A stretch of 64,000 bases of DNA from Longimicrobiales bacterium. Its GTDB lineage: Bacteria; Gemmatimonadota; Gemmatimonadetes; Longimicrobiales; Gaopeijiaceae. The notes beneath the pieces are model-generated. The model did no database searches. It was given only the letters and a program-made list of their open reading frames with translations, and was not told the DNA's origin. Positions 32,934 through 48,528 of the stretch are shown here, in pieces. The stretch is from the NCBI GenBank assembly GCA_965203485.1, contig OZ241892.1, positions 96,001 through 160,000 on the forward strand, in the 5' to 3' direction. A program made the position numbers and the translations under genes. The first letter of the stretch is position 1. Each line of letters begins with the position of its first letter.

Positions 32934-33563
32934 ATGAACGGACGGTTGCCGGTGGTGGGCGTGATGGGTTCGGGCACCAGCGAGCACGCGGGTCTCGCCG
33001 AGCCGTTGGGCGAAGCGTTGGCCCGGATGGGCGTGCACTTGCTGACCGGCGGAGGCGGAGGGGTGATGGCGGCGGCGTCGCGGGCGTTCGCGTCCGTCGA
33101 GGGGCGCGCCGGCTTGGTGATCGGCGTGTTGCCGGGCGTCGCCGGGGGGATGCGGCGAGCGGGCGGATCCGGGGAGTCTCCCCGGGGCTACCCGAACCCC
33201 TGGGTTGAACTGGAGGTCCGGACGCACCTGGGAGCCCGCGGCGCGAGCGGAGACGCGTGGGACTCGCGGAACCACGTCAACGTCCTGTCCTCGGACGTGG
33301 TCGTGGCCCTGCCGGGAGGCGCCGGCACCGCGTCCGAGATCGCGCTGGCTCTTTGCTACGGGCGGCCCGTCGTGCTCTTCGGCCGTGGCGAGCGCTCCGG
33401 GAGGCCGCCCGGCGGCGCCGAAGACGTGGCCGCGGCGTCCGCGCTGGAAGACGTGCTGGCCTTTGTGCGCCGCCGCTTGCCGGGCGGAAACGGCGAGGCT
33501 GCGGGAGACCGGCGGCCGCCCGGCGATTCCGGCCCCGGCCCGGCGCCGCGAGGCGCCTTGTGA
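32934..33563 (+). CDS. SLOG/LOG-family (Moco carrier-like) protein
   Basis: GVMGSG, LTGGGGGVM, RNHVNV, PGGAGT.SE; AGGAGG RBS. Confidence 0.75.
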   Translation: MNGRLPVVGVMGSGTSEHAGLAEPLGEALARMGVHLLTGGGGGVMAAASRAFASVEGRAGLVIGVLPGVAGGMRRAGGSGESPRGYPNPWVELEVRTHLGARGASGDAWDSRNHVNVLSSDVVVALPGGAGTASEIALALCYGRPVVLFGRGERSGRPPGGAEDVAAASALEDVLAFVRRRLPGGNGEAAGDRRPPGDSGPGPAPRGAL

Positions 33564-34312
33564 CTCTCCTGCCGCCGACTCCGCCGCTTCCGGCCTTGGT
33601 GAAGGCGCCCGAGCTTCGCGGATGGGTGCGGCTGGCGGTGGGGTTCGGGCCCGTTTCCCGAATCGTCGGGCCTGTGGCGTTTGCGCGTGGATGGGACGAG
33701 TTGCGGGTGCTCTTGAGGCGTTCCCCCGGGGCGCCCGCCGTCGTGGAGCGAGGCGCGGCGCCCGACGAACGCTGGGCCGAGCTCGGAGCGCCGATCGTCC
33801 CAGTTTCGGAAACGGCGAGGGCGCGGGACGCCAAGGCGCTCGAGTCAGCCGTGCTTCGGTCCATCGACCCGGCGGGCGCTCTTGGGGTGCTCGAGGGCGT
33901 GGAGCGCCGGGCCGGCCGCGAGGCGCGGCGAATAGCGGCCCGAATCCTTTCGATGGCGCATCGCCGGTGCGCGGTGCCCGAGGTGGCGGCAGGTCTCGGG
34001 TATTCGCAGGCGACGCTCGCCCGCCGGTGCGCCGTCTTGGGCCTTCCCCGCGCGAAGCGTCTGATTTCGCTCGCCCGCGTCTTCACGGTGGAGCGCTTGG
34101 CGGAATGGAGCCGCCAGCCGTCGGGCGTCGTGGCCGTTGCGCTCGGATTCTCGAACCCCTCGAATTACCGTCGGCTGGTGCGCGGGATGTTCGGCGCGCC
34201 GCCGTCCGTGGTGCGCGAGCGTGGCGGGGCGCGCTACGTCGCCCGTGTGGTCTCAGGGACGCACAGTGCGGCGGGCTCGGCGCGGAGCCAAGACGCGCGT
34301 GACGAAAAATGA
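33560..34312 (+). CDS. AraC-family transcriptional regulator
   Basis: Two HTH motifs: VAAGLGYSQATLARRC and VAVALGFSNPSNYRRLVRGMFGAPPS; GTGA overlap. Confidence 0.75.
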   Translation: MTLLPPTPPLPALVKAPELRGWVRLAVGFGPVSRIVGPVAFARGWDELRVLLRRSPGAPAVVERGAAPDERWAELGAPIVPVSETARARDAKALESAVLRSIDPAGALGVLEGVERRAGREARRIAARILSMAHRRCAVPEVAAGLGYSQATLARRCAVLGLPRAKRLISLARVFTVERLAEWSRQPSGVVAVALGFSNPSNYRRLVRGMFGAPPSVVRERGGARYVARVVSGTHSAAGSARSQDARDEK

Positions 34313-34439
34313 CACTCCCGGATTCGGCCTCCCTGCGTATTGAAATCTACAGAGCGGCATTCCGATCCTTGCCGCGCTTCTTCCCGTCCGCGCACGAATC
34401 GGAGAAGAAAATGAGAAACGCTATTGAGGGATCCGAGGT
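34105..34439 (+). repeat. About 330-bp direct repeat, copy 1 (araC 3' end plus downstream region)
   Basis: Highly similar to 37962-38288. Confidence 0.9.
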
Positions 34440-35715
34440 CCATTTTGGTATTCCGGGACCATGGCGTAGTCCGCCCTTCCGGTTCGCGCCGTCTATGATC
34501 CTCCCCTTTCTGCTCACTTTTACGATTCATTTGGATCTGTTCGCAATTTCTTCAGACCAGCAAGAGCGGTTTCCGGTTTTTCGTCTGTCGAGCACCTTCC
34601 TTTCCGTCTCTGATCAGCGTACTCATCATGGCGACGTCCGCGCCGCTTGGTTGGGATCGGCCATGTTTACGAGCGAAGGCGGATACGTCTTCGTGGACGA
34701 TTCCACAAGACAGGCATACGGAGCTCTTGGAACCGGCCGAATTCAGCCTCTGACCGACGCCGAGCCCGATCTTCCGTCCACCCTTCGCTTGATCGGACGA
34801 TTGTCCTCGGGCGAGATCGTTGCGGCCGATGATCACCGCGGCTCCATTAGCGCTGTCACCGCCGATGACATGACGGCGATAGGGGAATACGACGCGGTGC
34901 GCTGGCAACCTGCATGCGTCTTCGGCGACGGGACCGTAGTCGTACGGCCCAGCGTTCGAGCAAGGTTTGGCGTCCCGCAGGGATCGAAGGATGGGATCCA
35001 TCGCTACTCTGTGGAATATTCCGCGATGGATCGCCAAGGAATCGTACGGCCACTCGCAACAGTAGCGGGCGACGAAGCCACGTGGCTGACGACGCAAAGC
35101 AACGGCTGGCAATCTCGTCGTGCCACGTCCGTGATTTTCGGTCACAAGACGTTAGTGGCATGTTCGCACAACTACCTTGTTGTTGCACAAACCGATCTTG
35201 ACGTCGTGACTCTTGTCGATCGCGATGCCGACACTGTATTGCAATTTCCCTTGCCTGGTCGACGCCACTCCGTGTCTGCAACCCAAATCGACGCTCAAAG
35301 GCGCTTAAGCACGGCCACAGCCGGGCGCCGTAGTCGTATCGAGCGGCGCCGATACGAATACATGGCTTCAAAAACTGCAATACGGATCGTCCACCGTGAC
35401 CTCACGCCTGACGACATGGCGGCGGTTCCTTCCAACGACATTGCCCCGCCCGTCGATCAACTCTTTGTAGACGCTTCCGATCGCATTTGGATCAGAATGC
35501 TTCCATTGCCAAACGACGAAACGATCCACTGGCACGTCTGGAGCGTCGACCAGCGGGCAACGTCGTTTCTATTTAAGCTTCCTCGGCAAGCTAATGTTGC
35601 CGATGCATACGATGACCGCGTCTTGTTGCGCGTCGAAGAACCAGGGAGGCACGATCGTTTGATCGTTGCCCCGATGATCCGAAGTCCCGACAGTGGCCAG
35701 TTGCCCGCATTCTGA
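34411..35715 (+). CDS. Beta-propeller-like exported protein; start uncertain
   Basis: Shares VIFGH, VAQTD and APPVDQLFVDASDRIW with the propeller domain of 36101-37897. Confidence 0.6.
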   Translation: MRNAIEGSEVHFGIPGPWRSPPFRFAPSMILPFLLTFTIHLDLFAISSDQQERFPVFRLSSTFLSVSDQRTHHGDVRAAWLGSAMFTSEGGYVFVDDSTRQAYGALGTGRIQPLTDAEPDLPSTLRLIGRLSSGEIVAADDHRGSISAVTADDMTAIGEYDAVRWQPACVFGDGTVVVRPSVRARFGVPQGSKDGIHRYSVEYSAMDRQGIVRPLATVAGDEATWLTTQSNGWQSRRATSVIFGHKTLVACSHNYLVVAQTDLDVVTLVDRDADTVLQFPLPGRRHSVSATQIDAQRRLSTATAGRRSRIERRRYEYMASKTAIRIVHRDLTPDDMAAVPSNDIAPPVDQLFVDASDRIWIRMLPLPNDETIHWHVWSVDQRATSFLFKLPRQANVADAYDDRVLLRVEEPGRHDRLIVAPMIRSPDSGQLPAF

Positions 35716-35768
35716 CCCCAATCACGCTTCGGAACGACACACTTTAGCTTCAGGAAAAGGAGAAAGCC

Positions 35769-35972
35769 GTGAAATCGAATACACTCATCATTCGTTTGCT
35801 CGGATTGTTGCTGATCGCAATCCTGGCGGGCGATGCCGAGGCGGCCGGAGAAATGGACGTTGCTGGACCATGCGTGCCGTTTCTCGGGTGTACTCTCTGC
35901 AAAGCAGACAATCAAGACTGTCTAGTCATGTTTTGCGGCGATCACATTCACACCAACTGTGATTTCAACTGA
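35769..35972 (+). CDS. Small secreted Cys-rich peptide 1 (67 aa, 6 Cys)
   Basis: AAGGAG RBS and GTG start; Sec signal ending AEA; mature region C-x5-C-x2-C-x6-C-x4-C-x7-C. Confidence 0.75.
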   Translation: MKSNTLIIRLLGLLLIAILAGDAEAAGEMDVAGPCVPFLGCTLCKADNQDCLVMFCGDHIHTNCDFN

Positions 35973-36100
35973 GACAGGATGGGTTACACGACGATGTTGC
36001 AGGAGCTGAAGAAGTAAAGGCGTGACATGATCAGAAACGGGCAACTGGCCACGGGATCGCAAATGACAACGGTCGGCATGCATGAGGAAGGGGACGGCCA

Positions 36101-37897
36101 ATGACACTAGAAAGGCCAAGAAGCAAAAGACGTCTGGATCTTGTCGTAAACATTTCGATTCTGGCGACGCTCGCCTTTCTGCTCGCTGGGCCTTCCGGGC
36201 CTTTGGGTCGGATCATCGGGCGAACGTATAATGAATGGCAGGAACACCGTCGCATTGCGGCGACTTGGCCCGAACTCCTCAACAGCTCGGCGACGCTTGG
36301 CAGGAACGTTGACGACAACACTTGGAATGGGCCGGTGTTGGTAGAGTTTGTCGATTATCAATGTGCATCTTGCAGAAGGTTGGCGAATTCAGTATCGGAC
36401 GTGGCGGCATCTGGTCGAGCGAGGGTTGTGATTCGCCATTTTCCGATGGATGAACTGCATGGATGGGCTCGTGATGCCGCAAGGGCGGCGATCTGCGCGA
36501 CGAAGCAAGGTGCGTTTCCGCGAGTGCACGAGATGTTGCTGACCGAGACGGCGTGGATCGAGCAGAGGGACTGGACCAGTTTGGCAGGCAAGGCGAAAGT
36601 GCCGGAAATCGGCAACTTCGCGCGGTGCATGAGCGACCCCAGCACCGACCAGCAGATTGAGAACGACATTCGGACGGCAGAGCGATTGCGGGTTCGGGGG
36701 ACGCCGACGTTCGTGACGAAGTCTGGCCTTTTTGAAGGCGCGTCGGGCTTGGCTGAAGCGCTGGCGACGATGCGACCGCCCGGGCAGACGGTACAGGAAG
36801 ATGAGCGTGTTGGAACCTTGCATGTTGGAAAGGCCGCCATCTTCGATTCGTTTCTGCACCCGGAATCGTCCGTCTCTCGGCTGGGCCGGCTGGCAGGAGC
36901 ATTGTTCGTTGACGAGCAACGATTGTTGATAGGTGACCAGATGAACGCCGAGCTTCACTTGGTCGACTTGCCGACGGGCGACGTGACGACGATTGGGAGA
37001 CGGGGCGATGGACCCGGGGAATTCCATCTGCTCTTGGACGTCATGCGGACACGCGACGGATTTGCGGCATGGGATGCTGGACTGGCGAGGATCACGATGT
37101 TTTCCAAGACGGGCGATGTCGCCGAGAGTTGGTCTTATAATCGCATGTGGTTCAATCAGCCCATTGCGGCTCCTATCGCCGTGTTGTCGGATGGCGCCGT
37201 GGTCTTTCGCGACGGCGCGGAGCCGGCGGAGCGGCAAGGGCGCTTCAGGGACGAAACGCGATATGTGGAGGTAGCGAGAGACGGCATCGCCGGCATGGTG
37301 ACGGAGGCGCTGGGACGGGAGTACTGGAGCGGCAAGGGCGGATTCCAGCCGGTGATGTTCGGCCACCTCCTCTTGGAAGCACAGATTGGCGATCAGATCG
37401 CGGTCTCGCAAACCGACCTCGGCACGGTCAGGATAGTGAGCCGTGACGGAGAGGTCTCTGCGGAGCTCCGATTGGGACAGGAAAAACGGCCGTCCGCGTC
37501 GCAGGTGGAGACGACCCGGGAGAATGCGCGCAAGCAGTTGCGCCTCCGCATAGAGCGGGACGGACGACGTCCAAACGGAGCCGTTTTTCGACAAATCAAC
37601 GAAGCGAAATTGGCGGATGTCGACGACGTGCCGATGAACGAGACGTCGCCGCCCATCGACGCCATGTTCGTGGACATGGACGGGCGGCTTTGGTTGCGTG
37701 CCTACGCGATGCCAGACGACGACGGCAGCCGCTGGCAAGTGTGGAACCCGAACAACTTGAGTCGGCCGCAGGCGGTCTTGGTCGTTCAAGCCGACAAGGA
37801 GTTGCTCGATGCAAGCGGCGCTTATGTCGTCTTGCACGAGAGGAACGCCATGGGAATCGACCGCGTCCTCGTAGCCGCACTGGTGGAGGAGGATTGA
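36101..37897 (+). CDS. Membrane-anchored DsbA/thioredoxin-fold domain fused to a beta-propeller
   Basis: N-terminal TM helix, EFVDYQCASC, RHFP, GTPTF; then GRRGDGPGEF and DMDGRLW. Confidence 0.8.
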   Translation: MTLERPRSKRRLDLVVNISILATLAFLLAGPSGPLGRIIGRTYNEWQEHRRIAATWPELLNSSATLGRNVDDNTWNGPVLVEFVDYQCASCRRLANSVSDVAASGRARVVIRHFPMDELHGWARDAARAAICATKQGAFPRVHEMLLTETAWIEQRDWTSLAGKAKVPEIGNFARCMSDPSTDQQIENDIRTAERLRVRGTPTFVTKSGLFEGASGLAEALATMRPPGQTVQEDERVGTLHVGKAAIFDSFLHPESSVSRLGRLAGALFVDEQRLLIGDQMNAELHLVDLPTGDVTTIGRRGDGPGEFHLLLDVMRTRDGFAAWDAGLARITMFSKTGDVAESWSYNRMWFNQPIAAPIAVLSDGAVVFRDGAEPAERQGRFRDETRYVEVARDGIAGMVTEALGREYWSGKGGFQPVMFGHLLLEAQIGDQIAVSQTDLGTVRIVSRDGEVSAELRLGQEKRPSASQVETTRENARKQLRLRIERDGRRPNGAVFRQINEAKLADVDDVPMNETSPPIDAMFVDMDGRLWLRAYAMPDDDGSRWQVWNPNNLSRPQAVLVVQADKELLDASGAYVVLHERNAMGIDRVLVAALVEED

Positions 37898-37961
37898 GCG
37901 TCGCGGTGCAACTCTTCGTCGCCGGGAGCACTCAGGCCCTTTGAGTGCGATCCCTGTTGCG

Positions 37962-38288
37962 ATGGAGCCGCCCAGCCGTCGGACGTCGTGGCCGTCGCGC
38001 TCGGATTTTCGAACCCCTCGAATTACCGTCGGCTGGTGCGCGGGACGTTCGGCGCGCCGCCGTCCGTGGTACGCGAGCGCGGCGGGGCGCGCTACGTCGC
38101 CCGAGTGGTCTCGGGGACGCACGGCGCGGCGGGCCTGGCGCGGAGCCAAGACGCGCGTGACGAAAAATGACACTCCCGGATTCGGCCTCCCTGCGTATTG
38201 AATCTACAGAGCGGCATTCCGATCCTTTGCCGCGCTTCTTCCCATCTACGCACGAATCAAATGAGAAACGCATTGAGGGACCCGAGGT
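37962..38288 (+). repeat. About 330-bp direct repeat, copy 2, containing a 5'-truncated araC remnant
   Basis: Encodes AVALGFSNPSNYRRLVRGTFGAPPS...DARDEK with no N-terminal part. Confidence 0.9.
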
Positions 38289-38298
38289 AGGTGGCAAC

Positions 38299-39388
38299 GT
38301 GAAGAATCCGGCTCGCGTCCGCTCGGCCCTCGCGGTCTTCGCCTTGGCCGCGGGATGCGGAGACGCAACAAATCAGGAACGCCTGGTGTTGCCCGAGCCG
38401 ACGGGCGAAGCCGGGGTCCCAGCCAGCGAGAACGGCAACGTCGCGCTTGTCGGCGAATCCACCGCGTGCGTGGTGGACTCGTACTTTGTCCAGATCCATT
38501 GCGTGACTCGCGACGAACGGACAGTCGCGGCCTGGGGGAGCGAAGGCGAAGGTCCCGGAGAGTTCGGCAACATTGCCGCCCTAGTGCGCGGGCCCGAAGA
38601 AACGGTGGCCGTCGTGGACCACCAACTGAGCCGGATCACCACGTTCCGGCTTTCCGGCGAGCCCGTGTCCGAGACGCCCCTCCCGTCTCTCTTCGGCACG
38701 AGGGGCCCCTGGGCGTCACATTGCAGGGCCACTACATGGAGATCGGCCTCCCCTTGGACATCCGGCAAGTGGAGATCGACGCCGCGTCGGGCGAGCTGGA
38801 GTGGGAGCGCCGTTCCCTGTTTCCTATCCGCGGTGCGACGATGCAAATGAGAACGCCGAAGCGAGAGGCTCCGCTTTCGGGTCCCCTGCATCCGGTGGCG
38901 GAATGGTTTTCCCGGCATGCGACGGCCAGCTGATCCTGTTCCCCGACCGAGACGGCGACGCTACGGTGACGATTCCGCGCCCCGGGTTTGCCACCGAGTT
39001 CCCCAACGAGCGCGAAGTCGTCAAGTTCGCGGAGTCCCGGCGGCGGACGACGCCGTGGAGGTCCAACGCCGACAACGATGTCGAGGCCGACGTCGCCGCT
39101 TTTCGCCAAGAACCGAAGCAGTGGCTCCATCTCGGCCCCAAGCTGGACGACGCGGGGCGGCTGTGGCTGTTGACGAGCCGCGACCGCGACGAATTCTCGT
39201 ACATCGAACTGGTTGTCGGCGCCGAATACGCCGGCACCGTGAGGGTGGCGGACCGCGTGGTCGGCCTTGACGTCCTCGGCAATTCCCTCGCCGTCCTCGT
39301 CGAACTCCCGGCAGGCCCCGGCGACTCCGACGGCATGGAAGATCGAACGGTGGTATGGTACGACATCTCCGGATTGCCCAGCTCATGA
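38299..39388 (+). pseudogene. Beta-propeller lipoprotein split by two apparent frameshifts
   Basis: LAAGC lipobox and GSEGEGPGEF. The coding sense moves between frames near 38705 and 38820 and ends with DDAGRLW. Confidence 0.65.
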
Positions 39389-39471: not shown

Positions 39472-40625
39472 ATGACTGGTCGGGCCATTCGATTGCTGGC
39501 GGCGTGCGCCGCGGGATTGGCCATCTGCTGCGCCCCCGAGCAGGAGGCGGCCAGCGGGGACGAGGCCGGCAGGCTCCGTCCGCTGGCGTCCACGCTCGCA
39601 AGAGACATCGACCTGGAGGCCGGCGGAGGTCCTCCGGTGGTCGGACTTGACTACCTTGCGGCCGATTCGGTCGGCAACCTGTTCGTGCTGGACGCAAGCG
39701 CAGGGCACCTCCACAAGTACACGGCGGCGGGTCGGCATGTCGGCACCCTGGCAGGTGCGGACGGCGAACCGGTGTTTCTCCGCCAGCCCGCTGGTCCGTC
39801 GCCAGGGGGCGTCGTGGTGGGCCGCGACGGCAACGTCTACGTGGCGGCTGCTCCGCACGGCATGTTCGACCCGGAGTTGACCGAGAACTGGGTCAAGGGG
39901 GCCGTCACGCGTGTCTCGCCCGCCTTGGCGGTCGACACGGTCTTCACGATTCGAGGCCCGGAGGTCGTCGGTGGACTGTCCGCGTCGCCCCGCGAACTGG
40001 CGGTCGTGCTAGGACGTCCGAGGGACGCCGTGGAGCGGAGGTTCGGGTTGACCGAAGAAGAAGTCCTCGCGCGCGAAGAAGTTCTCCTCTTGACCTACGA
40101 CGGCGTGCCGACGACAGCCTTCATCCCGCAGACGAACGAAGGCACGGAGTGCCCTATTGGGGAGGATGGTTCAGAACCTACACAGCCGCCGCGGGCAACG
40201 AACTCTTGGTCGTCAGCTCCCTTTATCCGATTCATCGTTACCGGCCGGGAGGAGAACTGGCAGGAACCTTCGGGAGCGCGTCGGCTTCTTTCCGGCAACC
40301 GAGCCGGCCGGAGCCTCGGTCGTTCCCTACGGCGGATGCGCGATACTACGAGTGGCGGAGTTCGTTCACGACCATAGGAGGCATGCATGTCGTGGCGGAC
40401 TCGTTGGTGGTGGTCGTCTTGGAGGATCGCAACGCCGACGAGCTTGCCGCGGCGCAGTGGTCGTATCGGGCGGACGTCTACGACTTGCGCTCCGGCACTC
40501 CAGTGGCGCGAGACGTCGGCCTCGAGGGCCCAGTGCTGCACGCCGACACTTTGTTGCACGTGGCTTGGCGGCCGACCGGCGACGGTTGGCATGTCGGCCT
40601 CTTCGACTTGTCGGAGGGCCGATGA
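39472..40625 (+). pseudogene. NHL/beta-propeller lipoprotein with one apparent frameshift
   Basis: LAICC leader, DSVGNLFVLD, DGNVYV; continues as PYWGGW in another frame near 40145. Confidence 0.65.
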
Positions 40626-41824
40626 CGAAGCACATGCCAGAGGCAATTCACCGTTGGCGGCACCTTTCGGTGGCATGCCAGCGTCTGGGACCAGGACGGA
40701 TCGCTGTTCTTGCCTTGGCAGTCGTGTCGGCCAGTTGTGCCGACGCGGATCCGCCGCCAACGACGATGGCGACGGTGAACGTCGCCGACGCCCCACAGTG
40801 GAGCGTGGCGTCAAGCTTCGAGGTGGAACAGGACGAAGACGAACCCCTGGGTCGGGTGACCGGGGGATTGCTCCCGTCTGCCAACCTCATTGCAATCGCG
40901 GACGGTCTCAACTATCGCGTCGTTGTGGCGGATTCGTTGGGACGGCGCCTGCGGACGGTCGGCCGGGCCGGAATGGGACCGCTCGAGTTCGTGGAGATTG
41001 AGTGGATGGCCCGGTGGCCAGGAGATTCGGTGTTCGTCTGGGATTCTCGGTCAAGACGCTATTCGGTGTTTTCGCCGGAGACCGGCGAGGGCCGGACGGT
41101 TCTCCCGCAAGGAATGGAGACCCCGGTTTCCCGGGCGTTGCCGGGCGACGGCGGAGGCTTATGGGTGCTCGGCGTGGTGTTGGTCCCCAAGGAAGCTTCG
41201 CTCCCCCGCGGCCCGCACCGGTTCCGTCACGACTTGGGCTACTGGCAAGGGACGGGCCGCGTGAAGAAGGTGCATTCTCTGGCAGGACAAGGGCGCGTGG
41301 GACGGGGGCGGCCATGGCTGGGGGCCCCGATCACGGCGACCACGACGGGCGACGGCCTTTTCTACTTCACCGAGGGAGAGAGCCCCACGGTTGCCGTGCT
41401 CGATTCCACTGGCGTCGTGTTGCGGGAGATCAACGTGCGCGGCATGGCCGTTCAACTCACGGACGCGCGGCGCCAGAAGCTTGTTGAATGGCTGTACGAG
41501 TCGTCCGGCTATTCCGTCGCCGCCGTGAACCGGTCGCTCGATGCCGTGCCTTTGCCGGAGCAGTTCGACGCGATCTCCCGGATGGTCTTCGGCCGCGACG
41601 GAACGCTGTGGCTAGGCCAGCGGCCGGTGCCGGAGACGGAACGGCTCTGGCTCAACGTGACCACGGAGGGCGAGCCGATAAGGCAGGTGGCGATGCCCGC
41701 GGGAAGCGGCGTCATGCTGGACGCCGCCGGAGATCGTCTGCTCTTCCTGACGCGCGACGAACTGGACTTGGACCACATTCACGTGCACGTGATCGTTGCG
41801 GGAGGCCGGGGAAGACTGAGGTAA
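40622..41824 (+). CDS. Beta-propeller lipoprotein
   Basis: SASC lipobox-like motif, GRAGMGPLEF, GDSVFVWD, RDGTLW; ATGA overlap. Confidence 0.75.
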   Translation: MTKHMPEAIHRWRHLSVACQRLGPGRIAVLALAVVSASCADADPPPTTMATVNVADAPQWSVASSFEVEQDEDEPLGRVTGGLLPSANLIAIADGLNYRVVVADSLGRRLRTVGRAGMGPLEFVEIEWMARWPGDSVFVWDSRSRRYSVFSPETGEGRTVLPQGMETPVSRALPGDGGGLWVLGVVLVPKEASLPRGPHRFRHDLGYWQGTGRVKKVHSLAGQGRVGRGRPWLGAPITATTTGDGLFYFTEGESPTVAVLDSTGVVLREINVRGMAVQLTDARRQKLVEWLYESSGYSVAAVNRSLDAVPLPEQFDAISRMVFGRDGTLWLGQRPVPETERLWLNVTTEGEPIRQVAMPAGSGVMLDAAGDRLLFLTRDELDLDHIHVHVIVAGGRGRLR

Positions 41825-41843
41825 GACGGCCGTTGCTGAGGCG

Positions 41844-42125
41844 TCGACTTGTCGGGCCGCTATCGCGCATCGGCGCTGTTGCCGGACAGGGTTGAAGTGA
41901 TCGGCGCATGGAGGAACAGGTCGATCGGGATCGAGCATGCCACAAAGCCGTTTGACCCGGTTCTCAAGTCGTGTCAATTGCGGGAAGCGATTCCGATGTA
42001 GCGCGTCTCGCCAATGGCATCGAACCCGGGAGCCTTGCGAAATCGGCAGCGGGGAGTTCTTGCGTTGCCTTCATGCCCGGAATCCCTACGCGCCGGCCGA
42101 GTCGGCGGAGAACGCGGGACCCCGA
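41844..42125 (+). pseudogene. Degenerate copy of 46254-46548 (3' end of the DsbA-propeller gene plus 5' end of the ECF sigma gene)
   Basis: Shared blocks such as CTGTTGCCGGACA.GGTTGAAGTG, CCCGGTTCTCAAGTCGT and GCGAAATCGGCAGCGGGGAGTTCTTGCG. Confidence 0.85.
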
Positions 42126-43133
42126 GGCTCTTCCCCTGTTTCGGTGGGCGTCGTAGGATGGACGGGGGTACGGCATGGCTCTTGGAGCGAGGAGAGCGGA
42201 TGGAGATGCGGGAGTGGGTGGAGCGGCTGATGGGTCTGGGGCCGGAGTGGCGGATCGAGCGGGTGGACGAGGATTCGGAGCGCCAGGAGGCGCGGGTGGT
42301 GTTTGGCGCGCAGGGCGGGCCCGCCGTTGCGGTGCCCGGAGTGCGGGCGCGCGTGTCCGGGCTGCGACGTGCGACGCCGGGAGTGGCGGGGATTGGACGC
42401 ATGGGGATACAAGACGTTCGTGGTCTGCGACGTGCCCCGGGTGGAGTGTCCCGAGCACGGGGTGGCGACGACGCGGGCGGCCGTGGGCGGAGGGGGCGGT
42501 CGAGGTACACGGCGGCGTTCGAGTTGCTGGCGATTGGCTGGTTGCGCGAGGCGAGCGTGCTTGCGGTGTCGCGGCTGCTGCGCTTGAGCTGGACGGCGGT
42601 CGCCGGGATCATGGAGCGGGCGGTGCGCCGGGGCTTGGCGCGGCGCGGCGGCTGAGCGTGGACGATGACGTCGTTCAAGCGAGGCCACGCCTACGTGACG
42701 GTGGTGTCGGACGCGGAGACGCAGGACGTGCTGCACGTGGCGCCGGGGCGCCGGCAAGAAGACGCACGCCGAGAAGCTGGCGTTCGCCGAGTTGCGCAAA
42801 CTCGGCGTGGCTGCGCTGGTTGCAACGGGCGTCGGCGTCCGGCTCGGGCCGGTCGAGAAGGCGGCGGCGATGGGTCCCGGACGCGCCTGTGAGGCATCGT
42901 CAACGCCGTCGTGCTGAACGCGACCAACGGCCCGGCCGAGGGCGTCGCCAGCCGCATCCAAGCGATCGGGGCTCGGTGTCGCGGCTTCCGCAACCAGGAG
43001 CGCTTCGCCGCGGCCATTCTCTTCCACCTCGGCGGCCTCGACCTATGTCCGCCCCCCGCCCAGCGCTGACCGCCGTGCCCCTTTGCCACCTCCGCTCCGT
43101 CTTTTCCCCTCCCGCCACATCAGGGGAAGAGCC
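42126..43133 (+). mobile_element. Decayed, internally deleted ISL3-family insertion sequence
   Basis: Terminal IRs GGCTCTTCCCCTG and CAGGGGAAGAGCC. Frameshifted transposase fragments: [50 protein letters not shown]. Confidence 0.88.
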
Positions 43134-43166
43134 GAATTTGTCCAGTTACGCCGCTCCTCGAAGCAC

Positions 43167-43208
43167 GTGACGAAAAATGACACTCCGGAATTCCGCCTAC
43201 CTGCGTAT
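43167..43208 (+). promoter_or_regulatory. Conserved 42-bp upstream element, third copy (others at 34299 and 38157)
   Basis: GTGACGAAAAATGACACTCC...TTC.GCCT.CCTGCGTAT. Confidence 0.6.
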
Positions 43209-43256
43209 CCACTCATGTAAGCGGCGGTTCCACCACGAATCCACAAAGGAGGTTTC

Positions 43257-43484
43257 ATGAACCGCTTCATCCTGAACCTGCTGGCCGGCGCGACGATTCT
43301 GGTCGGCGGGTGGGTGCTCCTGTTCCCGGCGTCGGCGTCGGCGGACCCCGACGAGGCCTGTTGCAAGGTCACCATCACGAACGCCGACGGTAGCAAGGTC
43401 GAGCGCAAGTGTTGCGGGGACCGGTGCGACATCGACAGCGCCAACCAATGCAATGCGTGCACGGGGCTGGAATGCCTGCACTAG
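43257..43484 (+). CDS. Small secreted Cys-rich peptide 2 (75 aa, 8 Cys)
   Basis: AAGGAGGT RBS; Sec signal ending ASA; CC..CC..C..C..C..C. Confidence 0.8.
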   Translation: MNRFILNLLAGATILVGGWVLLFPASASADPDEACCKVTITNADGSKVERKCCGDRCDIDSANQCNACTGLECLH

Positions 43485-44653
43485 CCTGCGGTCTCAGGCC
43501 CGTCGGTCGTGGGAGGGAGGCGCATGCCTCCCTCCCACTGGCTGGCGCAGTCGCCGTGGGGCAATTCTTGCTCGCGGCTTGCTCCGCCGACGCTCCCGCG
43601 GACGGGCGGCCATGGGCTTCGGCTCCGGACGGCGCCTGGATCGACGTGCGGATGGAAGTCGTCTCCGGCGCCGACCTGTCCCTCGGCGGCGTGGGCAACG
43701 TCGCCTTCGGCCGGCTGGGCGTCGTTTACGTTGAAGACTACACGGGACCGGAGTTGCTGGTCTTGGACTCCCTGCTGAGACCGGTGGCAAGCGTCGGGCG
43801 ACGAGGCGAAGGGCCGGGAGAATTTCTCTCGATAAGCACGCTTCAGGTTCTTCCTGGCGACAGCCTCATGGTGTTCGACTCCCGCCTCAGCCGCATGACC
43901 ATCTTCTCGGAAGAACGTCTCGACTCCGGCCGGACCACCGCCGTCCCCCCGCTCCTTTCCGTTTCGAGGCTTTGGCGATTGCCTGGCCCGGAGCGAAGAC
44001 ACATGGCCTACGATGTCCAACCGTTCTATGCCCGCGACAGCGGCGAGACGGACGACGAACGCTTCGACGTGCTTTCCATCCTCGACGGGTCGGCGCAGGA
44101 GACGGCATTCGACTCCGTTCTGCTGGTGCCACAACCCAGATCATTAGTTGTCAGATCTGGCGGTAGCATCACGACAGGGCCTCATCCCTACGGGAGCGCC
44201 AACTTCTTCGGAGTGTTGCCCGGCGGCGGCTTTGCCCACGTGACAACGCGCGCCCTGGCGGTGACGATCGTCGGCGCAGACGGCAAGCAGACCGAGTTTT
44301 CTCATCCGACGATTCCGATTCCCGTGTCGTCGGAGCACCTCGATTCCACTCTGGCAGCGTTGAATTCGGATCAAGCCCGAGTTCTCCGTGACGGCGCACC
44401 CTACACGTGGCCTCCCGTCAGAACCATGATCGTCGACGACCAGGACCGGATATGGCTTGCACTGCGAAGACAGCCCGGCGAGACGCATCGAGAGTGGGCT
44501 GCGTTCACGCGCGACGGCCGCCACGTCGCGTCGGTGCGCCTCGCGACCAGCCTATGGGCTCGTGCCATCAGCGGGGACAAGCTCTTGGCCTTGGCCCTCG
44601 ACGACCTCGACGTGCCAACGCTTCGTCTCTACCGCATCTTGTGGGATAGATAA
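43472..44653 (+). CDS. Beta-propeller lipoprotein; start uncertain
   Basis: LLAAC lipobox, GRRGEGPGEF, GDSLMVFD, DDQDRIW. Confidence 0.75.
   Translation: MPALACGLRPVGRGREAHASLPLAGAVAVGQFLLAACSADAPADGRPWASAPDGAWIDVRMEVVSGADLSLGGVGNVAFGRLGVVYVEDYTGPELLVLDSLLRPVASVGRRGEGPGEFLSISTLQVLPGDSLMVFDSRLSRMTIFSEERLDSGRTTAVPPLLSVSRLWRLPGPERRHMAYDVQPFYARDSGETDDERFDVLSILDGSAQETAFDSVLLVPQPRSLVVRSGGSITTGPHPYGSANFFGVLPGGGFAHVTTRALAVTIVGADGKQTEFSHPTIPIPVSSEHLDSTLAALNSDQARVLRDGAPYTWPPVRTMIVDDQDRIWLALRRQPGETHREWAAFTRDGRHVASVRLATSLWARAISGDKLLALALDDLDVPTLRLYRILWDR
43509..43538 (+). terminator. Perfect 13-bp stem-loop downstream of peptide 2 (no U-tract)
   Basis: GTGGGAGGGAGGC-GCAT-GCCTCCCTCCCAC. Confidence 0.5.
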
Positions 44654-46411
44654 GTGAAGAAAATCGTCTCCAACGTCGTGACCGCCGTGCTGGTCGTCGG
44701 TGCTCTGCTGGTGACGGTTGCCGTCGCTCGTCGGGAGTTCACGGCGTCGTCCGCGACGCCGGCCTCGGAGCCCCGCCCAGCAGAGCCACGTCCAGTAGAC
44801 GACTGGCAAGCGCTGGCGACCGAGGGTGTCCGGATAGGGTCCCGCGACGCCCCCCTCGTGTTGATCGAGTTTGCCGATTTTCAGTGCCCGTTTTGCGCTG
44901 TGGCGGCCAACAACCTGCGCGAGGCCCTGTCGCACTACGGAGATGACGTTGCCGTCGTGTTTCGGCATTTTCCCCTTGAACACATTCACCCGCACGCCTA
45001 CGCTGCTGCCGTGGCGGCGGAGTGCGCCGCCTCGCAAGATCGCTTCGAAGCGTTCCACGACTTGCTTTTCGCCAGGCAGGACGAGATCGGCGAGACGCCA
45101 TGGGCGCAGTTCGCGGCGGCGGCGGCGGTGGACACCGTTCCCTTTGCCAGGTGCATGGAGGCGACATGGCCTCGCGACAGGGTGTTCGAGGACGCTCGCG
45201 CCGCGAGAAAAATCGGCCTTACGGGGACCCCGTCCATCGTCGTCGGCGGCCTTCTGCTGTCTGGCACGCCCAGCGTGGCGACGTTGCGAGAACACATTGG
45301 TCGGGCGTTGGCGGAAATCACGAAGGACTCGGCGGGACGCGCCTTGGTCGTTGATCGAGCCGCTGGCTCCGACCGCTTGCGACCATGGGCGTCGGGACCA
45401 TGGCTTGAAATCGAAGCTGAACGGACGAAATCGACGCCGGGGGGGTTTCTGGACTATCTCGGTATCGTTGCAGTTGGTCCGAGCGGGCGAATATATGCCG
45501 TGGAGCGGGGGAGCCGTCAAGTCTTGGTGTTCGATTCGAACCTGGAGTACGAGCACGCCCTGCCCAGTTCAATGGGGCGCAACCCCGTTTCCGCTCGCGA
45601 AGTGGACGGCGACAGCATCGTCTTCTTCGACTACGATTCCAAGACGACCCTTGTTTGGTCCGGCTACCACGCCGACCCAGGCCGCCGATCGAGCGTTCCC
45701 GGATTGGAGGGCTACGATCCATATGATGTCTGGAGGCTCGGAAACACGGCGGATTTCGTCGTGGCGTACCGTCGCCGCTCTTACTCGCAGGACGACCTCG
45801 ATGAACAGCGCTCGGATGTTGTTGGCCTAGCTAGGCGCGGGGCGCTCCGTGTCGATTCGATATTGTCTTTTCCGTCTCGCGAAGTGCTGGTTGTGACGCC
45901 CGAAGACGGGGGATTCTCGGTGGGGCCGCATCCGTTCGGGCGACGGCCGTACCTTCGTCTGGTGGCCGGCGACAAGATCGTCTATGCTCTTTCGGACGAG
46001 TTCAAGGTCACGATATTGAATCTGGCGGCCGGAACCGAGAGTCGGTGGTCGTACGAGGCGGAGGTGACGCAGGTCGAGGACGACGAAGTGGAGCGAGCGG
46101 CGGCGTCCATGCGGTCGGCATCCAGGGCAGATGCCCTGCTCGAAAACGCTCCGTACTTTCGTTCAGTGCTCGCGGGCTTGGCGGTGGACGACGATCGGGA
46201 ACTCATTTGGGTCGGCTTGAGAGCTCAGGCGGATTCGTTGGAGTGGGCGGCGTTCGACCTGTCGGGCCGCCATCGAGCGTCGTTGCTGTTGCCGGACAAG
46301 GTTGAAGTGGTTGGCGCGTGGAGGGACAGGTTGATTGGAATCGAATACGACAGAAAGCCCTTTGGCCCGGTTCTCAAGTCGTATTATTTGCGAGAATCGG
46401 GTACGATGTAG
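44654..46411 (+). CDS. Membrane-anchored DsbA/thioredoxin-fold domain fused to a beta-propeller
   Basis: TM helix, EFADFQCPFC, FRHFPL..IHP, GTPS; propeller-like C-terminal half. Confidence 0.82.
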   Translation: MKKIVSNVVTAVLVVGALLVTVAVARREFTASSATPASEPRPAEPRPVDDWQALATEGVRIGSRDAPLVLIEFADFQCPFCAVAANNLREALSHYGDDVAVVFRHFPLEHIHPHAYAAAVAAECAASQDRFEAFHDLLFARQDEIGETPWAQFAAAAAVDTVPFARCMEATWPRDRVFEDARAARKIGLTGTPSIVVGGLLLSGTPSVATLREHIGRALAEITKDSAGRALVVDRAAGSDRLRPWASGPWLEIEAERTKSTPGGFLDYLGIVAVGPSGRIYAVERGSRQVLVFDSNLEYEHALPSSMGRNPVSAREVDGDSIVFFDYDSKTTLVWSGYHADPGRRSSVPGLEGYDPYDVWRLGNTADFVVAYRRRSYSQDDLDEQRSDVVGLARRGALRVDSILSFPSREVLVVTPEDGGFSVGPHPFGRRPYLRLVAGDKIVYALSDEFKVTILNLAAGTESRWSYEAEVTQVEDDEVERAAASMRSASRADALLENAPYFRSVLAGLAVDDDRELIWVGLRAQADSLEWAAFDLSGRHRASLLLPDKVEVVGAWRDRLIGIEYDRKPFGPVLKSYYLRESGTM

Positions 46412-46425
46412 ACGGCCTCTTGCAA

Positions 46426-47025
46426 ATGGAATTGGGCGGTGAGCCGCTGTTCCGCCGTGGCGAAATCGGCAGCGGGGAGTTCTTGCGCCGCCTTCATGCC
46501 CGAGATCCAGACGCATTGGCCGACTTGGCCGAGGAAGCGGGTCCGCGAATGCTCGGACGCATTCGTTCGCTGATTTCCGACGAAGAAGACGCCAACGAAC
46601 TATACCAGGAATGCTGGTTGCACCTCATGAAGCAGTTGGACAAGTGCACGAAACCGCGCAGCGTGGTGGGATGGGCGGTCGTGATCAGCGCGAATCACTG
46701 CAAGTCGTTGTTGCGCCGAAAGAAGGGCGGTCCCGTCCTCGTTCCCTTGGAGGAGGCAGAGGACATCGCCGACACGGCGCCGAATCCGGAAACGAAGTTG
46801 CAACGAATCACCGTGGAAGAAGCCGTGTGGGCTGCATTGGACCTGTTGCCCGAGCGGCAGCGAGAAGCGGTGATCTCGACGCTGATGGAAGGACGAAGCA
46901 ACGCCGAAACAGCCGTAGAGATGGACGTAAGCCCGCGGACGGTCAGCTCGTTGGTTGCCGCCGCTGTTCGGAAGCTTCAGGAGCGACGGGAGCTTCGACA
47001 ACTATTTCAGGACATGTTCCACTGA
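46426..47025 (+). CDS. ECF-type RNA polymerase sigma factor
   Basis: Region 2 DANELYQECW and region 4 LPERQREAV...SNAETAVEMDVSPRTV. Confidence 0.85.
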   Translation: MELGGEPLFRRGEIGSGEFLRRLHARDPDALADLAEEAGPRMLGRIRSLISDEEDANELYQECWLHLMKQLDKCTKPRSVVGWAVVISANHCKSLLRRKKGGPVLVPLEEAEDIADTAPNPETKLQRITVEEAVWAALDLLPERQREAVISTLMEGRSNAETAVEMDVSPRTVSSLVAAAVRKLQERRELRQLFQDMFH

Positions 47026-47137
47026 CGCGCAGGGAGGCGGAGAAGACATGCACAGGGTACGAGAGAGGAATCGTGGGATCGACGACCAGAATCTGCCGAA
47101 AAGTGCACGAACGCCGACTAGCTAGGAGAGCTCAAGA

Positions 47138-47374
47138 ATGAAGACAATGACGAGATGGATCATGTTGGGGACGTTGATCAGCGTCGCTTTGGCGCCGACG
47201 ACGTTCTTGGCGACGCGACGGCCGACGGAATGCTCCAGCTCCGGCGTCCGCCTGTTTGACTGTTGCCGGACGGCCAAGGACGGCGAGACCGGCTGTTGCA
47301 CCAGATGCTGCTGGTGGCCTCGTGGGTGTGGTGATTGCCCCGATCCGGCAGTCGGGGCGACTGGCGCATCATGA
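47138..47374 (+). CDS. Small Cys-rich peptide 3 with hydrophobic leader (78 aa, 9 Cys)
   Basis: AGGAG RBS; C..CC..CC..CC..C..C; ATGA overlap with the next gene. Confidence 0.65.
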   Translation: MKTMTRWIMLGTLISVALAPTTFLATRRPTECSSSGVRLFDCCRTAKDGETGCCTRCCWWPRGCGDCPDPAVGATGAS

Positions 47375-48528
47375 AAGACCGTTCGGTGGTGTCGTCAATG
47401 ATCGAGAGCGTCTTCGCGCGTCATGCGGCCGGAAACGTCGTAAAATTGTCGGGAATCTATTTGTTGTACGCTCTCTGGTTCACTCTCACTTTCCATGCAG
47501 GCATGCCCTACTTGGAACGCATCTTGTTGACCGGCGCCGGCGCAAGCTTTCAGATGGCAATTCTGGCAGGCGCGGCGGTCTTCATGTCTGCCACCGACCA
47601 CTTCGACGTGTTCGGAGACAAAGCGCCGGAGACTCGCAAGAGGGACTGGGGATGCTTGGCGCTTTTCGGCATCGCCGCCTGTTTGTTGATGGAGGTGGGG
47701 CTTCCCCTGACGGATTGGTTGCTGGAGGTGGTGGTTGGAATGCCGGAGGCGGACACCGAGACGCCGTGGAGCTGGACGATGCGCTACTTGGTTCCCGTAT
47801 CCGTGGCCGCGTTCGTCGTCGCATCCGGCGTTGCGGGGGCGGCGGTGGGTCGCATGACCGATTGGTCGTCGCCCGGACGCCGTCGCTTGGTGCGATGGCT
47901 GGGAGCGTTGGGGTTCACGGTGTTGTTCGCGGGCTCGCTGGTCGTCTGGACCGAAGTCGTGATCGTTAACGGATTTCCCTTCGCTGTCATCCCCGTTGTG
48001 CCGCTGCTACTGCCGCTCGTGGCCGCTTGTTGGTTGGTCCGGTCCCAACGCTATGGCGTGCTGGAGGTGTTGGGCTTGAGGCGGAGCGGCGGCCTCGCTC
48101 CCGAGGTGGTCGACCGGCTTGTGCAGGTGGTCGTAGACGCAGACGAGGAAGGCGCTTCGAGCATCGAGAAAGCGGCGAGGACCCCGGAAGAACTGGAGAT
48201 GGCTCGCTTCCTGAAATGGCTCCGGCACGCGGCAGCGCCTTCATTAGCGGTGAGCAAGGCGGAAGCGGAGGATATGGTGGCCTTTGCGCTGAAGATGGCC
48301 TCAGTGCCGCCGACGAAGCGGTCGCCCCACCGAGCATGGCGGCCGGTCTGGAGCAAAATCGGCGAGTTCGGATCGTCTTGGGCGATCTTGTCGGTCGGCT
48401 TGGCGACGGCAGGTTTGTCGGGTGGCCTGATTCCCAGTCCAGTGCCCGCACTGGCGGTTGGCGGATTCGGAGCGACCGTCAGCATGTTCCAAAGACTCCG
48501 CGATGCAAACAGCCCGCCGAAGGCATAG
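47371..48528 (+). CDS. Hypothetical polytopic membrane protein
   Basis: Multiple hydrophobic helices; start overlaps the stop of peptide 3. Confidence 0.7.
   Translation: MKDRSVVSSMIESVFARHAAGNVVKLSGIYLLYALWFTLTFHAGMPYLERILLTGAGASFQMAILAGAAVFMSATDHFDVFGDKAPETRKRDWGCLALFGIAACLLMEVGLPLTDWLLEVVVGMPEADTETPWSWTMRYLVPVSVAAFVVASGVAGAAVGRMTDWSSPGRRRLVRWLGALGFTVLFAGSLVVWTEVVIVNGFPFAVIPVVPLLLPLVAACWLVRSQRYGVLEVLGLRRSGGLAPEVVDRLVQVVVDADEEGASSIEKAARTPEELEMARFLKWLRHAAAPSLAVSKAEAEDMVAFALKMASVPPTKRSPHRAWRPVWSKIGEFGSSWAILSVGLATAGLSGGLIPSPVPALAVGGFGATVSMFQRLRDANSPPKA

Follow-up and report, generated by a model that had tools for sequence, protein, structure and literature searches.

Gene content of the island

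We analysed a window of 64,000 nt, the whole stretch of DNA considered here, from contig OZ241892.1 (GCA_965203485.1) of a Longimicrobiales bacterium (Gemmatimonadota; Gaopeijiaceae). Positions 33560..48528 hold a 15-kb island with an AraC-like gene, three genes for mini-proteins with 6, 8 and 9 Cys, two DsbA–propeller fusions, five other NHL-type propeller genes, an ECF sigma factor, a membrane protein (TM), an ISL3 remnant and three conserved promoter-like boxes, all on the + strand:

33560..34312, +, AraC-like regulator with C-terminal HTH_18 (PF12833, 38.7 bits versus cut-off 33.6)
34300..34341, +, promoter-like box, copy 1 (TGAC-N6-TGAC, 20–22 nt spacer, CGT)
34411..35715, +, divergent propeller P1 (propeller HMM 4.5e-21; start 34411 or 34495)
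35769..35972, +, pep1 (67 aa, signal peptide, 6 Cys, mature net charge −5)
36101..37897, +, DsbA1: membrane-anchored thioredoxin-fold protein (CASC) ending in a six-bladed propeller (PF13462 55.2 bits, PF01323 39.6 bits)
37972..38202, +, second copy of the AraC-like 3' end (231 nt sharing 95% identity with 34114-34344), including box copy 2 (38158-38199)
38299..39388, +, propeller lipoprotein P2, a pseudogene with two frameshifts (pieces 85–87% identical to the intact G001 orthologue)
39472..40625, +, propeller lipoprotein P3, a pseudogene with one frameshift (two frames are needed to align it with the intact paralogue G000:1969838-1971037)
40622..41824, +, propeller lipoprotein P4, intact and without a peptide gene next to it (paralogue 54% at G000:1971130-1972236)
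41844..42125, +, relic duplicate covering the 3' end of DsbA2 and the 5' end of ECF (82% identical to 46254-46548)
42126..43133, +, disrupted ISL3 element carrying terminal inverted repeats (PF13542, PF14690, PF01610 in separate frames; inverted repeat I15)
43168..43209, +, promoter-like box, copy 3, preceding pep2 (at the corresponding place in G001 and G002 too)
43257..43484, +, pep2 (75 aa, signal peptide, 8 Cys as CC..CC..C..C..C..C, mature net charge −4)
43472..44653, +, propeller lipoprotein P5 (LLAAC lipobox-like; pep2-linked clade)
44654..46411, +, DsbA2: membrane-anchored thioredoxin-fold protein (CPFC) whose propeller falls in the P5 clade by tree (PF13462 83.6 bits)
46426..47025, +, ECF sigma factor of the TM/AraC-linked clade (TIGR02937 87.4 bits versus 42.9; PF04542, PF08281)
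47138..47374, +, pep3 (78 aa, signal peptide, 9 Cys, mature net charge +1)
47371..48528, +, TM, anti-sigma candidate of 385 aa: six-helix membrane domain TMN (about 1–228) and TMC (about 236–380)

The island has a patchwork structure, built from cassettes that encode small Cys-rich proteins with export signals. A first-pass annotation had described a single-strand island of 15 kb with an AraC regulator, an ECF sigma factor, a membrane protein, three short ORFs with RBS, leader and 6, 8 or 9 Cys, and two anchored CxxC DsbA-like proteins fused to propellers; each of these was recovered at its place, with PF12833 and TIGR02937 above cut-off. Its five further propeller genes are also all present, but P2 and P3 are frameshifted. 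Assembly errors were rejected as the source of these frameshifts, as contigs of runs X2, X7 and X8 cover the stretch gap-free; one X5 contig over 38227-40532 has 1 gap. The peptide/DsbA/propeller group, which the annotation saw twice, does occur twice, but the two groups are different families and not one duplicated unit, because searches with pep1 and pep2 find different paralogues and the DsbA1 and DsbA2 domains are 34% identical. The ISL3 remnant (42126-43133), the partial duplicates (AraC-like; DsbA2/ECF) and the three-copy box had been missed.

In a literature search we found no publication describing the peptide/propeller/DsbA/TM/ECF gene set, in agreement with the earlier label ‘undescribed’, and no paper joining ECF, anti-sigma and propeller in Gemmatimonadetes; the word ‘propeller’ is absent from the main texts of PMC10469786, PMC10581226 and PMC7826278. 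The gene set is real and conserved, and from it we infer the mechanism proposed below.

Three families of Cys-rich mini-proteins

The pep1, pep2 and pep3 ORFs, each with an RBS, a positive N-terminus and a hydrophobic stretch, belong to three unrelated families of Cys-rich mini-proteins. The sister species G001 has a pep1 orthologue (L252); pep2 has 10 homologues and was found in 11 of 301 class genomes, and pep3 in 25 of 301. In the pep2 (A2, 14 members) and pep3 (A8, 18 members) families the leader is conserved and the Cys-framed core variable, and tandem peptide copies with variable loops occur. The mature parts have dN/dS values of 0.18–0.67 and, as judged from their sequences, the peptide ORFs are genuine genes kept by purifying selection. 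Mature pep2 (0.41–0.67) diverges faster than P5 (0.33). Positive selection was rejected, with no dN/dS >1 in eight pairwise part comparisons (one undefined).

Strains without a peptide core but with its partners exist. Segment 35829-36197, which includes the mature part of pep1, is absent from contigs of three of the four sequencing runs, and its deletion joins the pep1 leader in frame to DsbA1. In G001, the pep3 leader is kept without the Cys core and TM is intact.

Eight of the nine Cys of pep3 are invariant in A8, in the pattern CC-x8/9-CC-x2-CC-x5-C-x2/5-C. The three adjacent Cys-Cys pairs and the ECF linkage might suggest that the Cys-rich products bind metal ions or sense periplasmic thiol oxidation under ECF control. 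We find such metal or redox buffering scarcely probable: the even number of invariant Cys and the dedicated DsbA-type oxidases point instead to structural disulfides, and no metal transporter was found in the island or in the mapped loci, which were searched for the island families only.

A conserved leader with a variable Cys-framed core would also be compatible with peptides that target an animal host in the manner of nodule cysteine-rich peptides or conotoxins, the propellers then being eukaryote-like NHL proteins. Marine metagenomes are among the datasets richest in island sequence (the datasets listed as containing it include no RNA dataset), and the TM family reaches Ca. Palauibacter; sponge-labelled runs contain <0.2 of the sequence words and therefore give no evidence of habitat. 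Host effectors nevertheless appear highly unlikely. The arrangement pep2–P5–DsbA recurs in g26, which belongs to a different family of this order, and in further Longimicrobiales records. Of 72 loci from other phyla, 4 have a Cys peptide–DsbA pair. Sec leaders deliver to the periplasm, and the island encodes no outer-membrane exporter.

DsbA–propeller fusions

DsbA1 and DsbA2 have intact active-site motifs, a GTP cis-Pro loop and an N-terminal hydrophobic anchor. The features of DsbA-like proteins are thus present: PF13462 and PF01323 above cut-off, CxxC, the cis-Pro loop and an extracytoplasmic anchor. Both are extra enzymes, because a housekeeping DsbA and VKOR are encoded elsewhere in the genome; VKOR is single, and no DsbB was found in this 95%-complete genome. 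A scan of genome contigs with DsbA2, used as a control, returned mostly unrelated DsbA genes.

DsbA1 has full-length relatives in G001, in G007 and in one paralogue. DsbA2 is broken in both sister species, having lost the thioredoxin domain in G001 and the propeller and part of the thioredoxin domain in G002, and a DsbA lies within 1.5 kb at only one of 30 pep3 loci, which weakens the idea that the fusion is a conserved core.

Like NHLRC2 and SOQ1, the fusions join a thioredoxin fold to a six-bladed NHL-type propeller, and weak profile matches to SOQ1 (4e-5) and NHLRC2 (0.006) were found. They differ in having a DsbA-type domain with a helical insertion, a bacterial membrane anchor and their own putative small substrates, and in being unstable among sister species.

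Peptides and their propellers

The P5 model (AF2, pLDDT 92.7) has NHL six-bladed propellers as its top Foldseek matches, namely Brat NHL (4zlr, 1q7f) and BF0058 (4raa), and profile matches include the extracellular sensor domain of PknD, which has the NHL six-bladed fold. Island proteins score 13.6–18.2 bits against PF17170, below the 22.9 cut-off, which 15 of the 27 matches in the genome exceed. P1, the partner in the pep1 cassette, has a 51% paralogue at G000:9599-10789 and an orthologue in G001 in the same order, P1–pep1–DsbA1. The likely start of P5 overlaps the pep2 stop, which suggests coupled translation; a G+C hairpin lies at about 43509-43538.

Mini-ORFs with a signal, an RBS and at least 4 Cys (n = 40, whole genome) lie directly upstream of a propeller ORF in 12 cases, with 0.33 expected and a maximum of 3 in 500 random placements; for 20 of the 40, a same-strand propeller lies no more than 2 kb away (1.9 expected). 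For control mini-ORFs with 0–1 Cys (n = 90), the corresponding counts were 4 (0.85 expected) and 8 (4.2 expected). Signal-bearing Cys-rich small ORFs are also enriched at homologous loci, where the first-pass annotation had proposed to look.

By tree and gene order, two peptide families each track one propeller clade. Among 121 propellers, all seven pep2-linked members fall in one clade of 11 (support 0.992), and the 17 pep3-linked with the 12 TMC-fused propellers make up one clade of 29 (0.998), the fusions nested inside. Outside this sample, the pep2 alignment led to five further places, each with a pep2-clade propeller directly downstream, giving 9 of 13 places overall. At pep3 loci (n = 30), a propeller lies within 1.5 kb in 26, TMN in 17, and an ECF or AraC gene in 18. 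The genome itself has three pep3-type genes and no pep3-clade propeller (best 3.5e-13, where true members reach 1e-47 to 1e-92). Because kin share gene order, the clade matching does not by itself demonstrate co-evolution.

This clade matching, the pep2/P5 overlap and the direct DsbA–propeller fusion in five genes of the genome could also belong to a two-subunit envelope protein on the methylamine dehydrogenase pattern. The mini-protein would be a disulfide-bonded small subunit capping or completing the propeller, or the propeller a folding or holding chaperone beside DsbA, and the regulators would merely control expression. MauB is a propeller. The mau cluster (MauA, MauB, MauD, MauE) likewise places a disulfide-rich small protein, a propeller and a dedicated CxxC thioredoxin in one operon and, according to a preprint, MauD is that thioredoxin for the six disulfides of MADH (bioRxiv 10.64898/2026.03.05.709764). 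We consider such a protein unlikely, however. Neither A2 nor A8 contains the invariant Trp pair, nor any invariant Trp or other cofactor-forming residue; the near-invariant propeller residues are Gly/Pro/Asp/Arg/Trp blade motifs, none of them invariant; most propellers lack a peptide; and peptide cores can be lost. Unlike mau, the island has NHL-type six-bladed propellers and many paralogous cassettes, and no Mau family, MauE and MauG included, is among the Pfam/NCBIfam matches of the island proteins scanned.

A peptide lies upstream of 16 of the 84 propeller ORFs in the genome (2 of the 16 doubtful). The other 68, some of which stand in arrays, might be orphan immunity proteins if the mini-proteins were bacteriocin-like toxins that antagonise related bacteria and the propeller lipoproteins neutralised their own peptide family. 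Retention of partners after loss of the core (pep1 in three of four runs; pep3 in G001), tandem copies with variable loops and the faster divergence of mature pep2 than of P5 would all agree with this. Antimicrobial peptides are typically cationic, though, unlike the acidic or neutral mature parts found here. The peptides have no match to a toxin or bacteriocin family among Pfam/NCBIfam profiles and no dN/dS >1, immunity would leave the propeller–TMC fusion behind ECF (see below) unexplained, and loss of a costly signal with retention of its receptor fits signalling equally well. We therefore hold toxin and immunity to be a doubtful explanation.

The ECF sigma factor and TM

The ECF protein consists of sigma2 and sigma4 only. 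TM has 11 homologues and was found in 24 of 301 class genomes; its TMC part comprises a three-helix soluble segment and two hydrophobic helices. In all 12 fusion loci the order is TMN–ECF–[TMC–propeller], with TMC fused to a pep3-type propeller directly behind ECF; by hydropathy, the soluble N-terminus is separated from the propeller by three hydrophobic segments. No mini-protein lies beside the fusion operon in the five of five checked. Gene order and hydropathy give this fusion the layout of an anti-sigma sensor.

By tree and profile, TM belongs with ECF. All 29 TM-labelled ECFs of a 67-member tree fall in one clade of 34 (0.948), whose other five members are AraC-linked and have no TM within 2.6 kb. 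The two TM-adjacent ECFs of the genome score 244 and 228 bits against the ECF-family profile (the 228 one lying outside the profile), and the next scores 153. For the pep1 and pep2 cassettes, the shared box and their neighbourhood are the only links to ECF.

TM has no Pfam or PDB match. Its AF2 model (11 sequences) has a pLDDT of 42; TMC helices are predicted at 244-309 in this low-confidence model, and a fold search with residues 1-161 only returned generic helical bundles. The comparisons gave no support for TMC as a zinc-type anti-sigma domain (hhalign 9.6, the mean of 30 block shuffles; no Hx3Cx2C motif in A4) or for kinship of TMN with LptF/G. In pairwise hhalign, TMN did align to helices 4-6, with an E of 0.28 and a probability of 0.2%; TM is not among the PF03739 matches of the genome.

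The fusion type resembles the membrane-bound class I anti-sigma factors RseA, RskA and RsiW, as outlined in parts of PMC7406223: an ECF gene is followed by a soluble helical N-terminus, membrane helices and an extracytoplasmic domain, and one ECF clade pairs with one partner family. In all 12 fusion loci TMC, beside ECF, has the soluble helical domain before the membrane helix. Zinc-free class I factors also exist according to those parts (PMC7406223), and it was the zinc type with which TMC was compared. Unlike RseA, RskA and RsiW, TMC has no zinc motif or zf-HC2 profile similarity, the membrane helices number two or three, a six-helix TMN is added, the putative sensor is a propeller, and the island unit also has a Cys-rich peptide and an AraC-like gene.

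The promoter-like box and the AraC-like gene

The AraC-like gene, whose start codon overlaps the stop of an upstream SLOG gene, occupies the same site in G001 and G002, and the duplicate of its 3' end forms a direct repeat flanking the pep1 block. The box has six strong copies genome-wide, versus 0–1 weak matches in each of three shuffles. It recurs in the sister species and, in diverged form, behind the ECF gene in genus g36, and it lies ahead of peptide/propeller genes in two genera. The box is likely to combine a regulator site with an ECF-type −10. A sigma-70 promoter scan (1 site) and a terminator scan (12 sites) were both at shuffle level.

A putative peptide-signal switch

Gene content, peptide–propeller and ECF–TM clade matching, the propeller–TMC fusion behind ECF and the shared box are the observed basis of our interpretation. 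The island likely works as an undescribed, putative peptide-signal/receptor switch at the cell envelope. For one particular chain, in which a secreted disulfide-folded peptide acts on a cognate propeller receptor, this on a membrane anti-sigma candidate and this on ECF, we would give a probability of about 0.4. Mini-proteins would be exported by Sec and their leaders cleaved; DsbA1 and DsbA2 would oxidize 6–8 Cys and be re-oxidized by the genome's single VKOR; and each folded mini-protein would bind its cognate propeller lipoprotein. The propeller, fused or in trans, would then contact TM, whose cytoplasmic three-helix segment would hold ECF. ECF and the AraC-like protein may act at the TGAC-N6-TGAC/CGT box to drive cassette expression in a feedback loop, with peptide-less propellers as spare receptors.

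The first-pass annotation had left the choice between toxins, signals and host effectors, and between chaperone, receptor and immunity roles for the propellers. Because the propellers are clade-matched and TM goes with ECF, signal and receptor are favoured over toxin or host effector.

In Bacteroidota, NVEALA small proteins (PF14055) adjoin DUF5128/TolB_like propellers, and the island shares with these neighbourhoods a small exported Cys-containing protein beside a six-bladed propeller; 89 of 121 P5 relatives match PF17170 at E ≤ 0.01. The loose NVEALA likeness drawn earlier did not extend to membership: at E ≤ 1, PF14055 matched none of the three peptides, the 14 A2 members, the 18 A8 members or the genome. 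The island peptides also have 6–9 Cys, and the island has DsbA fusions, ECF and TM, unlike NVEALA. A literature search found no paper on an NVEALA or DUF5128 neighbourhood.

A much wider picture, which we offer as speculation with the odds against it, is that of a multi-channel peptide language in Gemmatimonadota. Conotoxin-like disulfide mini-proteins would number in the dozens, each with its own propeller receptor, and would be wired through a new membrane anti-sigma class to an ECF/AraC pair; cassettes would be swapped by recombination at the shared box, and natural non-producers would delete the peptide core and keep listening. If so, a little-studied phylum would possess a large natural repertoire of disulfide-stapled mini-proteins, complete with matched receptors and dedicated folding enzymes. 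It would also have a kind of ECF signalling in which a secreted peptide of the cell's own making is the trigger and acts through an anti-sigma factor without known relative. The island names testable cognate pairs, pep2–P5, pep3 with its propeller clade, and TMC–ECF, along with a candidate promoter, and the natural deletion strains would separate producing from sensing.

Composition and history of the island

The island (33560–48528) is bounded by an SLOG gene on one side and an S9 peptidase gene on the other, within the window (C1:96001–160000) of a genome (G000) that is a single contig of 3.56 Mb with 69% G+C. Its own G+C content is 58–66%, as against 69–70% in the flanks. The elements listed in the first-pass annotation were all found, on the plus strand. 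Its five free propeller genes (P1–P5) are likewise all present, but P2 and P3 are frameshifted; because contigs of sequencing runs X2, X7 and X8 cover this stretch with no gaps, we consider the frame breaks real. P2 is intact in G001, a sister species.

An island is found at the same site in G001 and in a second sister species, G002, with a core of AraC-like gene, promoter-like box, pep2, P5, DsbA2, ECF sigma factor (ECF), pep3 and membrane protein (TM), where pep1–pep3 are Cys-rich mini-proteins and DsbA1 and DsbA2 are thioredoxin fold–propeller fusions. Relative to this core, the P1–pep1–DsbA1 block is extra in G000. A 231-nt direct repeat (95%) of the AraC-like 3' end lies on both sides of the pep1 block, which suggests that the block entered by recombination, probably through the shared AraC end and the box. 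A paralogous pep1-type block at G000:7455–12559 is preceded by an ECF and an AraC-like gene of its own, G001 holds a P1–pep1–DsbA1-type block at another site, and the P3–P4 pair has a paralogue at G000:1969838–1972239. The grouping of peptide, DsbA and propeller does occur twice, as had been claimed, but its two instances are therefore distinct cassettes, not one duplicated unit. Among named DsbA2 relatives with the cassette, the closest (L002, L003) are titled Longimicrobiales, and a genus of this class has a protein named Ca. Palauibacter; the organism is therefore probably a member of Gemmatimonadota. A remnant of the DsbA2/ECF junction (82%) is interrupted by a broken ISL3 element; this ISL3 family (window 42126–43133) has many other copies in the sequencing runs, with a depth of 300–1000 versus ∼75 in X2.

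The island contains three copies of a box, TGAC-N6-TGAC...CGT, which, like the direct repeat and the junction remnant, the first-pass annotation did not mention. The genome has six strong copies, compared with 0–1 weak matches in shuffles, located as follows:

ahead of P1
ahead of P2
ahead of pep2
ahead of the pep2 paralogue
ahead of a broken pep2 copy
ahead of one other gene

In genus g36, diverged copies with the CGT spacing unchanged lie behind the ECF gene; two had served as seeds, and of the six further locus matches, which had not, some are one and the same place seen in overlapping loci. Presumably the CGTA of the box is an ECF-type −10 element, and an activator would bind at the TGAC repeat.

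Cys-rich mini-proteins adjoin propellers more often than expected by chance

A filter for an RBS, a leader and at least four Cys yielded 40 mini-ORFs genome-wide. Twelve lie directly upstream of one of the 84 propeller ORFs, when 0.33 were expected and the maximum in 500 random placements was 3; 20 of the 40 lie within 2 kb of a propeller on the same strand (1.9 expected). Among control signal-bearing ORFs with 0–1 Cys, the corresponding counts were 4/90 (0.85 expected) and 8/90 (4.2 expected). Only 16 of the 84 propellers have an upstream peptide, even with a relaxed filter. dN/dS was 0.18–0.67 for mature pep2 and pep3, 0.33 for P5, 0.20–0.24 for ECF and 0.27–0.31 for TM; these are therefore real genes under purifying selection.

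Small Cys-rich ORFs had been expected around DsbA homologues, and a peptide with a propeller was indeed present at 4/8 Gemmatimonadota-titled loci, at 2/23 short loci of relatives and at 0/72 loci of other phyla, where a peptide alone occurred at 4/72. In records of Dormiibacterota, Terriglobia, Steroidobacteraceae and Anaerolineales (L001, L004, L006, L008), convincing signal-bearing Cys-rich mini-ORFs adjoin DsbA genes, with no propeller match. In family f2 (genus g26; loci L109–L117 of genomes G001, G033, G031, G039 and G027), unrelated 4–6-Cys mini-proteins directly precede stand-alone DsbA genes, with a propeller present at some loci and absent at others. Further regions of G000 are related in content:

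C1:454000–474000, 1015000–1035000 and 2415000–2429000: three more large islands of like kind, with DsbA–propeller fusions, ECFs, a TM paralogue and Cys mini-proteins of several mutually unrelated families
C1:3052194–3057710 (−): at least four propeller genes in array, some fragmented, with no upstream peptide found
C1:2509887–2510847 (−): two to three tandem signal-bearing Cys mini-ORFs, one similar to a hydrophobic bacteriocin-like precursor, with no propeller within 40 kb

Each peptide family goes with its own propeller clade

Among 50% representatives, 5598 are related to P5 at E ≤ 0.001. The P5 model is confident (pLDDT 92.7) and matches NHL six-bladed propellers and BF0058. We aligned it with 120 of the 150 relatives listed, excluding fragments and long forms; PF17170 matched 89 of the 121 sequences and NHL 36. 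No column is invariant, and hence there is no sign of a common catalytic site.

A tree was built from 121 complete propellers of G000 and the compared loci, excluding ORFs shorter than 330 aa or without a stop. All seven propellers that follow a pep2-type gene fall in one clade of 11 (support 0.992), which includes the propeller of DsbA2. The pep2 profile matched 11/301 class genomes, at 13 distinct places. At nine of these, of which five were new to the profile, a propeller of this clade lies directly downstream; the other four are three weak matches and one truncated gene. The pep3 profile, with eight invariant Cys, matched 25/301. Within 1.5 kb of pep3, at the 30 loci listed, we found a propeller at 26, the six-helix membrane domain of TM (TMN) at 17, an ECF or AraC-like gene at 18 and a DsbA at one. 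As judged from this tree and the gene orders, each peptide family goes with its own propeller clade. This matching is no proof of co-evolution, as kinship of gene order could yield it. The pairing would also suit a small subunit or chaperone pair of mini-protein and propeller, which we regard as rather unlikely.

A strong G+C hairpin (window 43509–43538) directly follows the pep2 stop, within the P5 leader region; both the paralogue and G002 retain it with altered arms. It could reduce P5 output relative to the peptide.

DsbA fusions and peptide cores are lost naturally

Both DsbA domains have a CxxC and a cis-Pro loop. Because a separate DsbA–VKOR pair is encoded elsewhere in G000, where DsbB had no match, the island DsbAs are extra enzymes; use of the mini-proteins as a metal or redox buffer seems very improbable. 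The DsbA–propeller fusion is unstable: DsbA2 lacks its thioredoxin domain, in frame, in G001, and its propeller and the end of its thioredoxin domain in G002. Other families encode DsbA as a stand-alone gene.

The contigs of X5, X7 and X8, which come from two studies, lack 369 nucleotides, so that the pep1 leader joins DsbA1 in frame at codon 33. In G001, pep3 has lost its Cys core but keeps the leader and the tail, and ECF and TM are intact. Loss of the product with retention of its partner fits a public good, a signal or a toxin equally well. That the mini-proteins are toxins with propellers as immunity partners we consider rather unlikely overall; a role as host effectors is quite improbable. 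At G000:C1:9346–9560 (−) and 2451323–2451515 (+), pep1/pep2 paralogues have the 5' part out of frame or the core replaced.

TM is a candidate anti-sigma factor

TM has 11 homologues of similar length and is present in 24/301 class genomes. It occurs in two layouts. In the first, TMN and the C-terminal segment (TMC) are fused, mostly in ECF–propeller–pep3–TM–AraC cassettes. In the second, TMN and ECF are followed by a TMC–propeller fusion, as at 12/12 fusion loci among the 30 listed. These 12 propellers are nested within a clade of 17 pep3-linked ones (29 members, 0.998). The fusion runs from a soluble helical segment through three hydrophobic segments to the propeller, and is laid out like a membrane anti-sigma factor carrying an external sensor. 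In a tree of 67 ECFs, 29/29 labelled as TM-adjacent fall in one clade of 34 (0.948), whose other five members adjoin AraC-like genes; the ECF of L229, beside a weak TMN match, lies just outside. The island's ECF group may be described in the supplement of PMC7826278. A 483-codon open frame at G000:C1:3416037–3417488 (+), in which an AraC-like domain of the island's family comes after an ECF domain, is possibly a natural ECF–AraC fusion.

Several observations weigh against the anti-sigma reading. TM matched no Pfam family, TMC matched neither Pfam nor PDB, and TMC had no similarity to the zf-HC2 domains of 24 relatives, a comparison restricted to the zinc type; according to PMC7406223, ∼44% of class I anti-sigma domains are without zinc. 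The TM structure model was unusable, and a hydropathy scan of the window's TM gave the six TMN segments only, the two C-terminal ones resting on alignment and model. The G000 genome has no pep3-clade propeller, and no peptide was found beside the five fusion operons checked.

A putative signalling switch

NVEALA, to whose neighbourhoods a loose likeness had been proposed, was not matched, and the island differs from a mau-type quinoprotein system by the features tested. Judged from its genes, it would work like an ECF/anti-sigma switch, of which it is a candidate member only. The earlier interpretation is thus supported in part and sharpened towards signalling. We tentatively read the island, with a probability of about 0.4, as a switch in which a mini-protein would be exported and disulfide-folded, the folded peptide would bind its cognate propeller, and the peptide-bound propeller would act via TM on ECF, with the AraC-like protein acting at the box.
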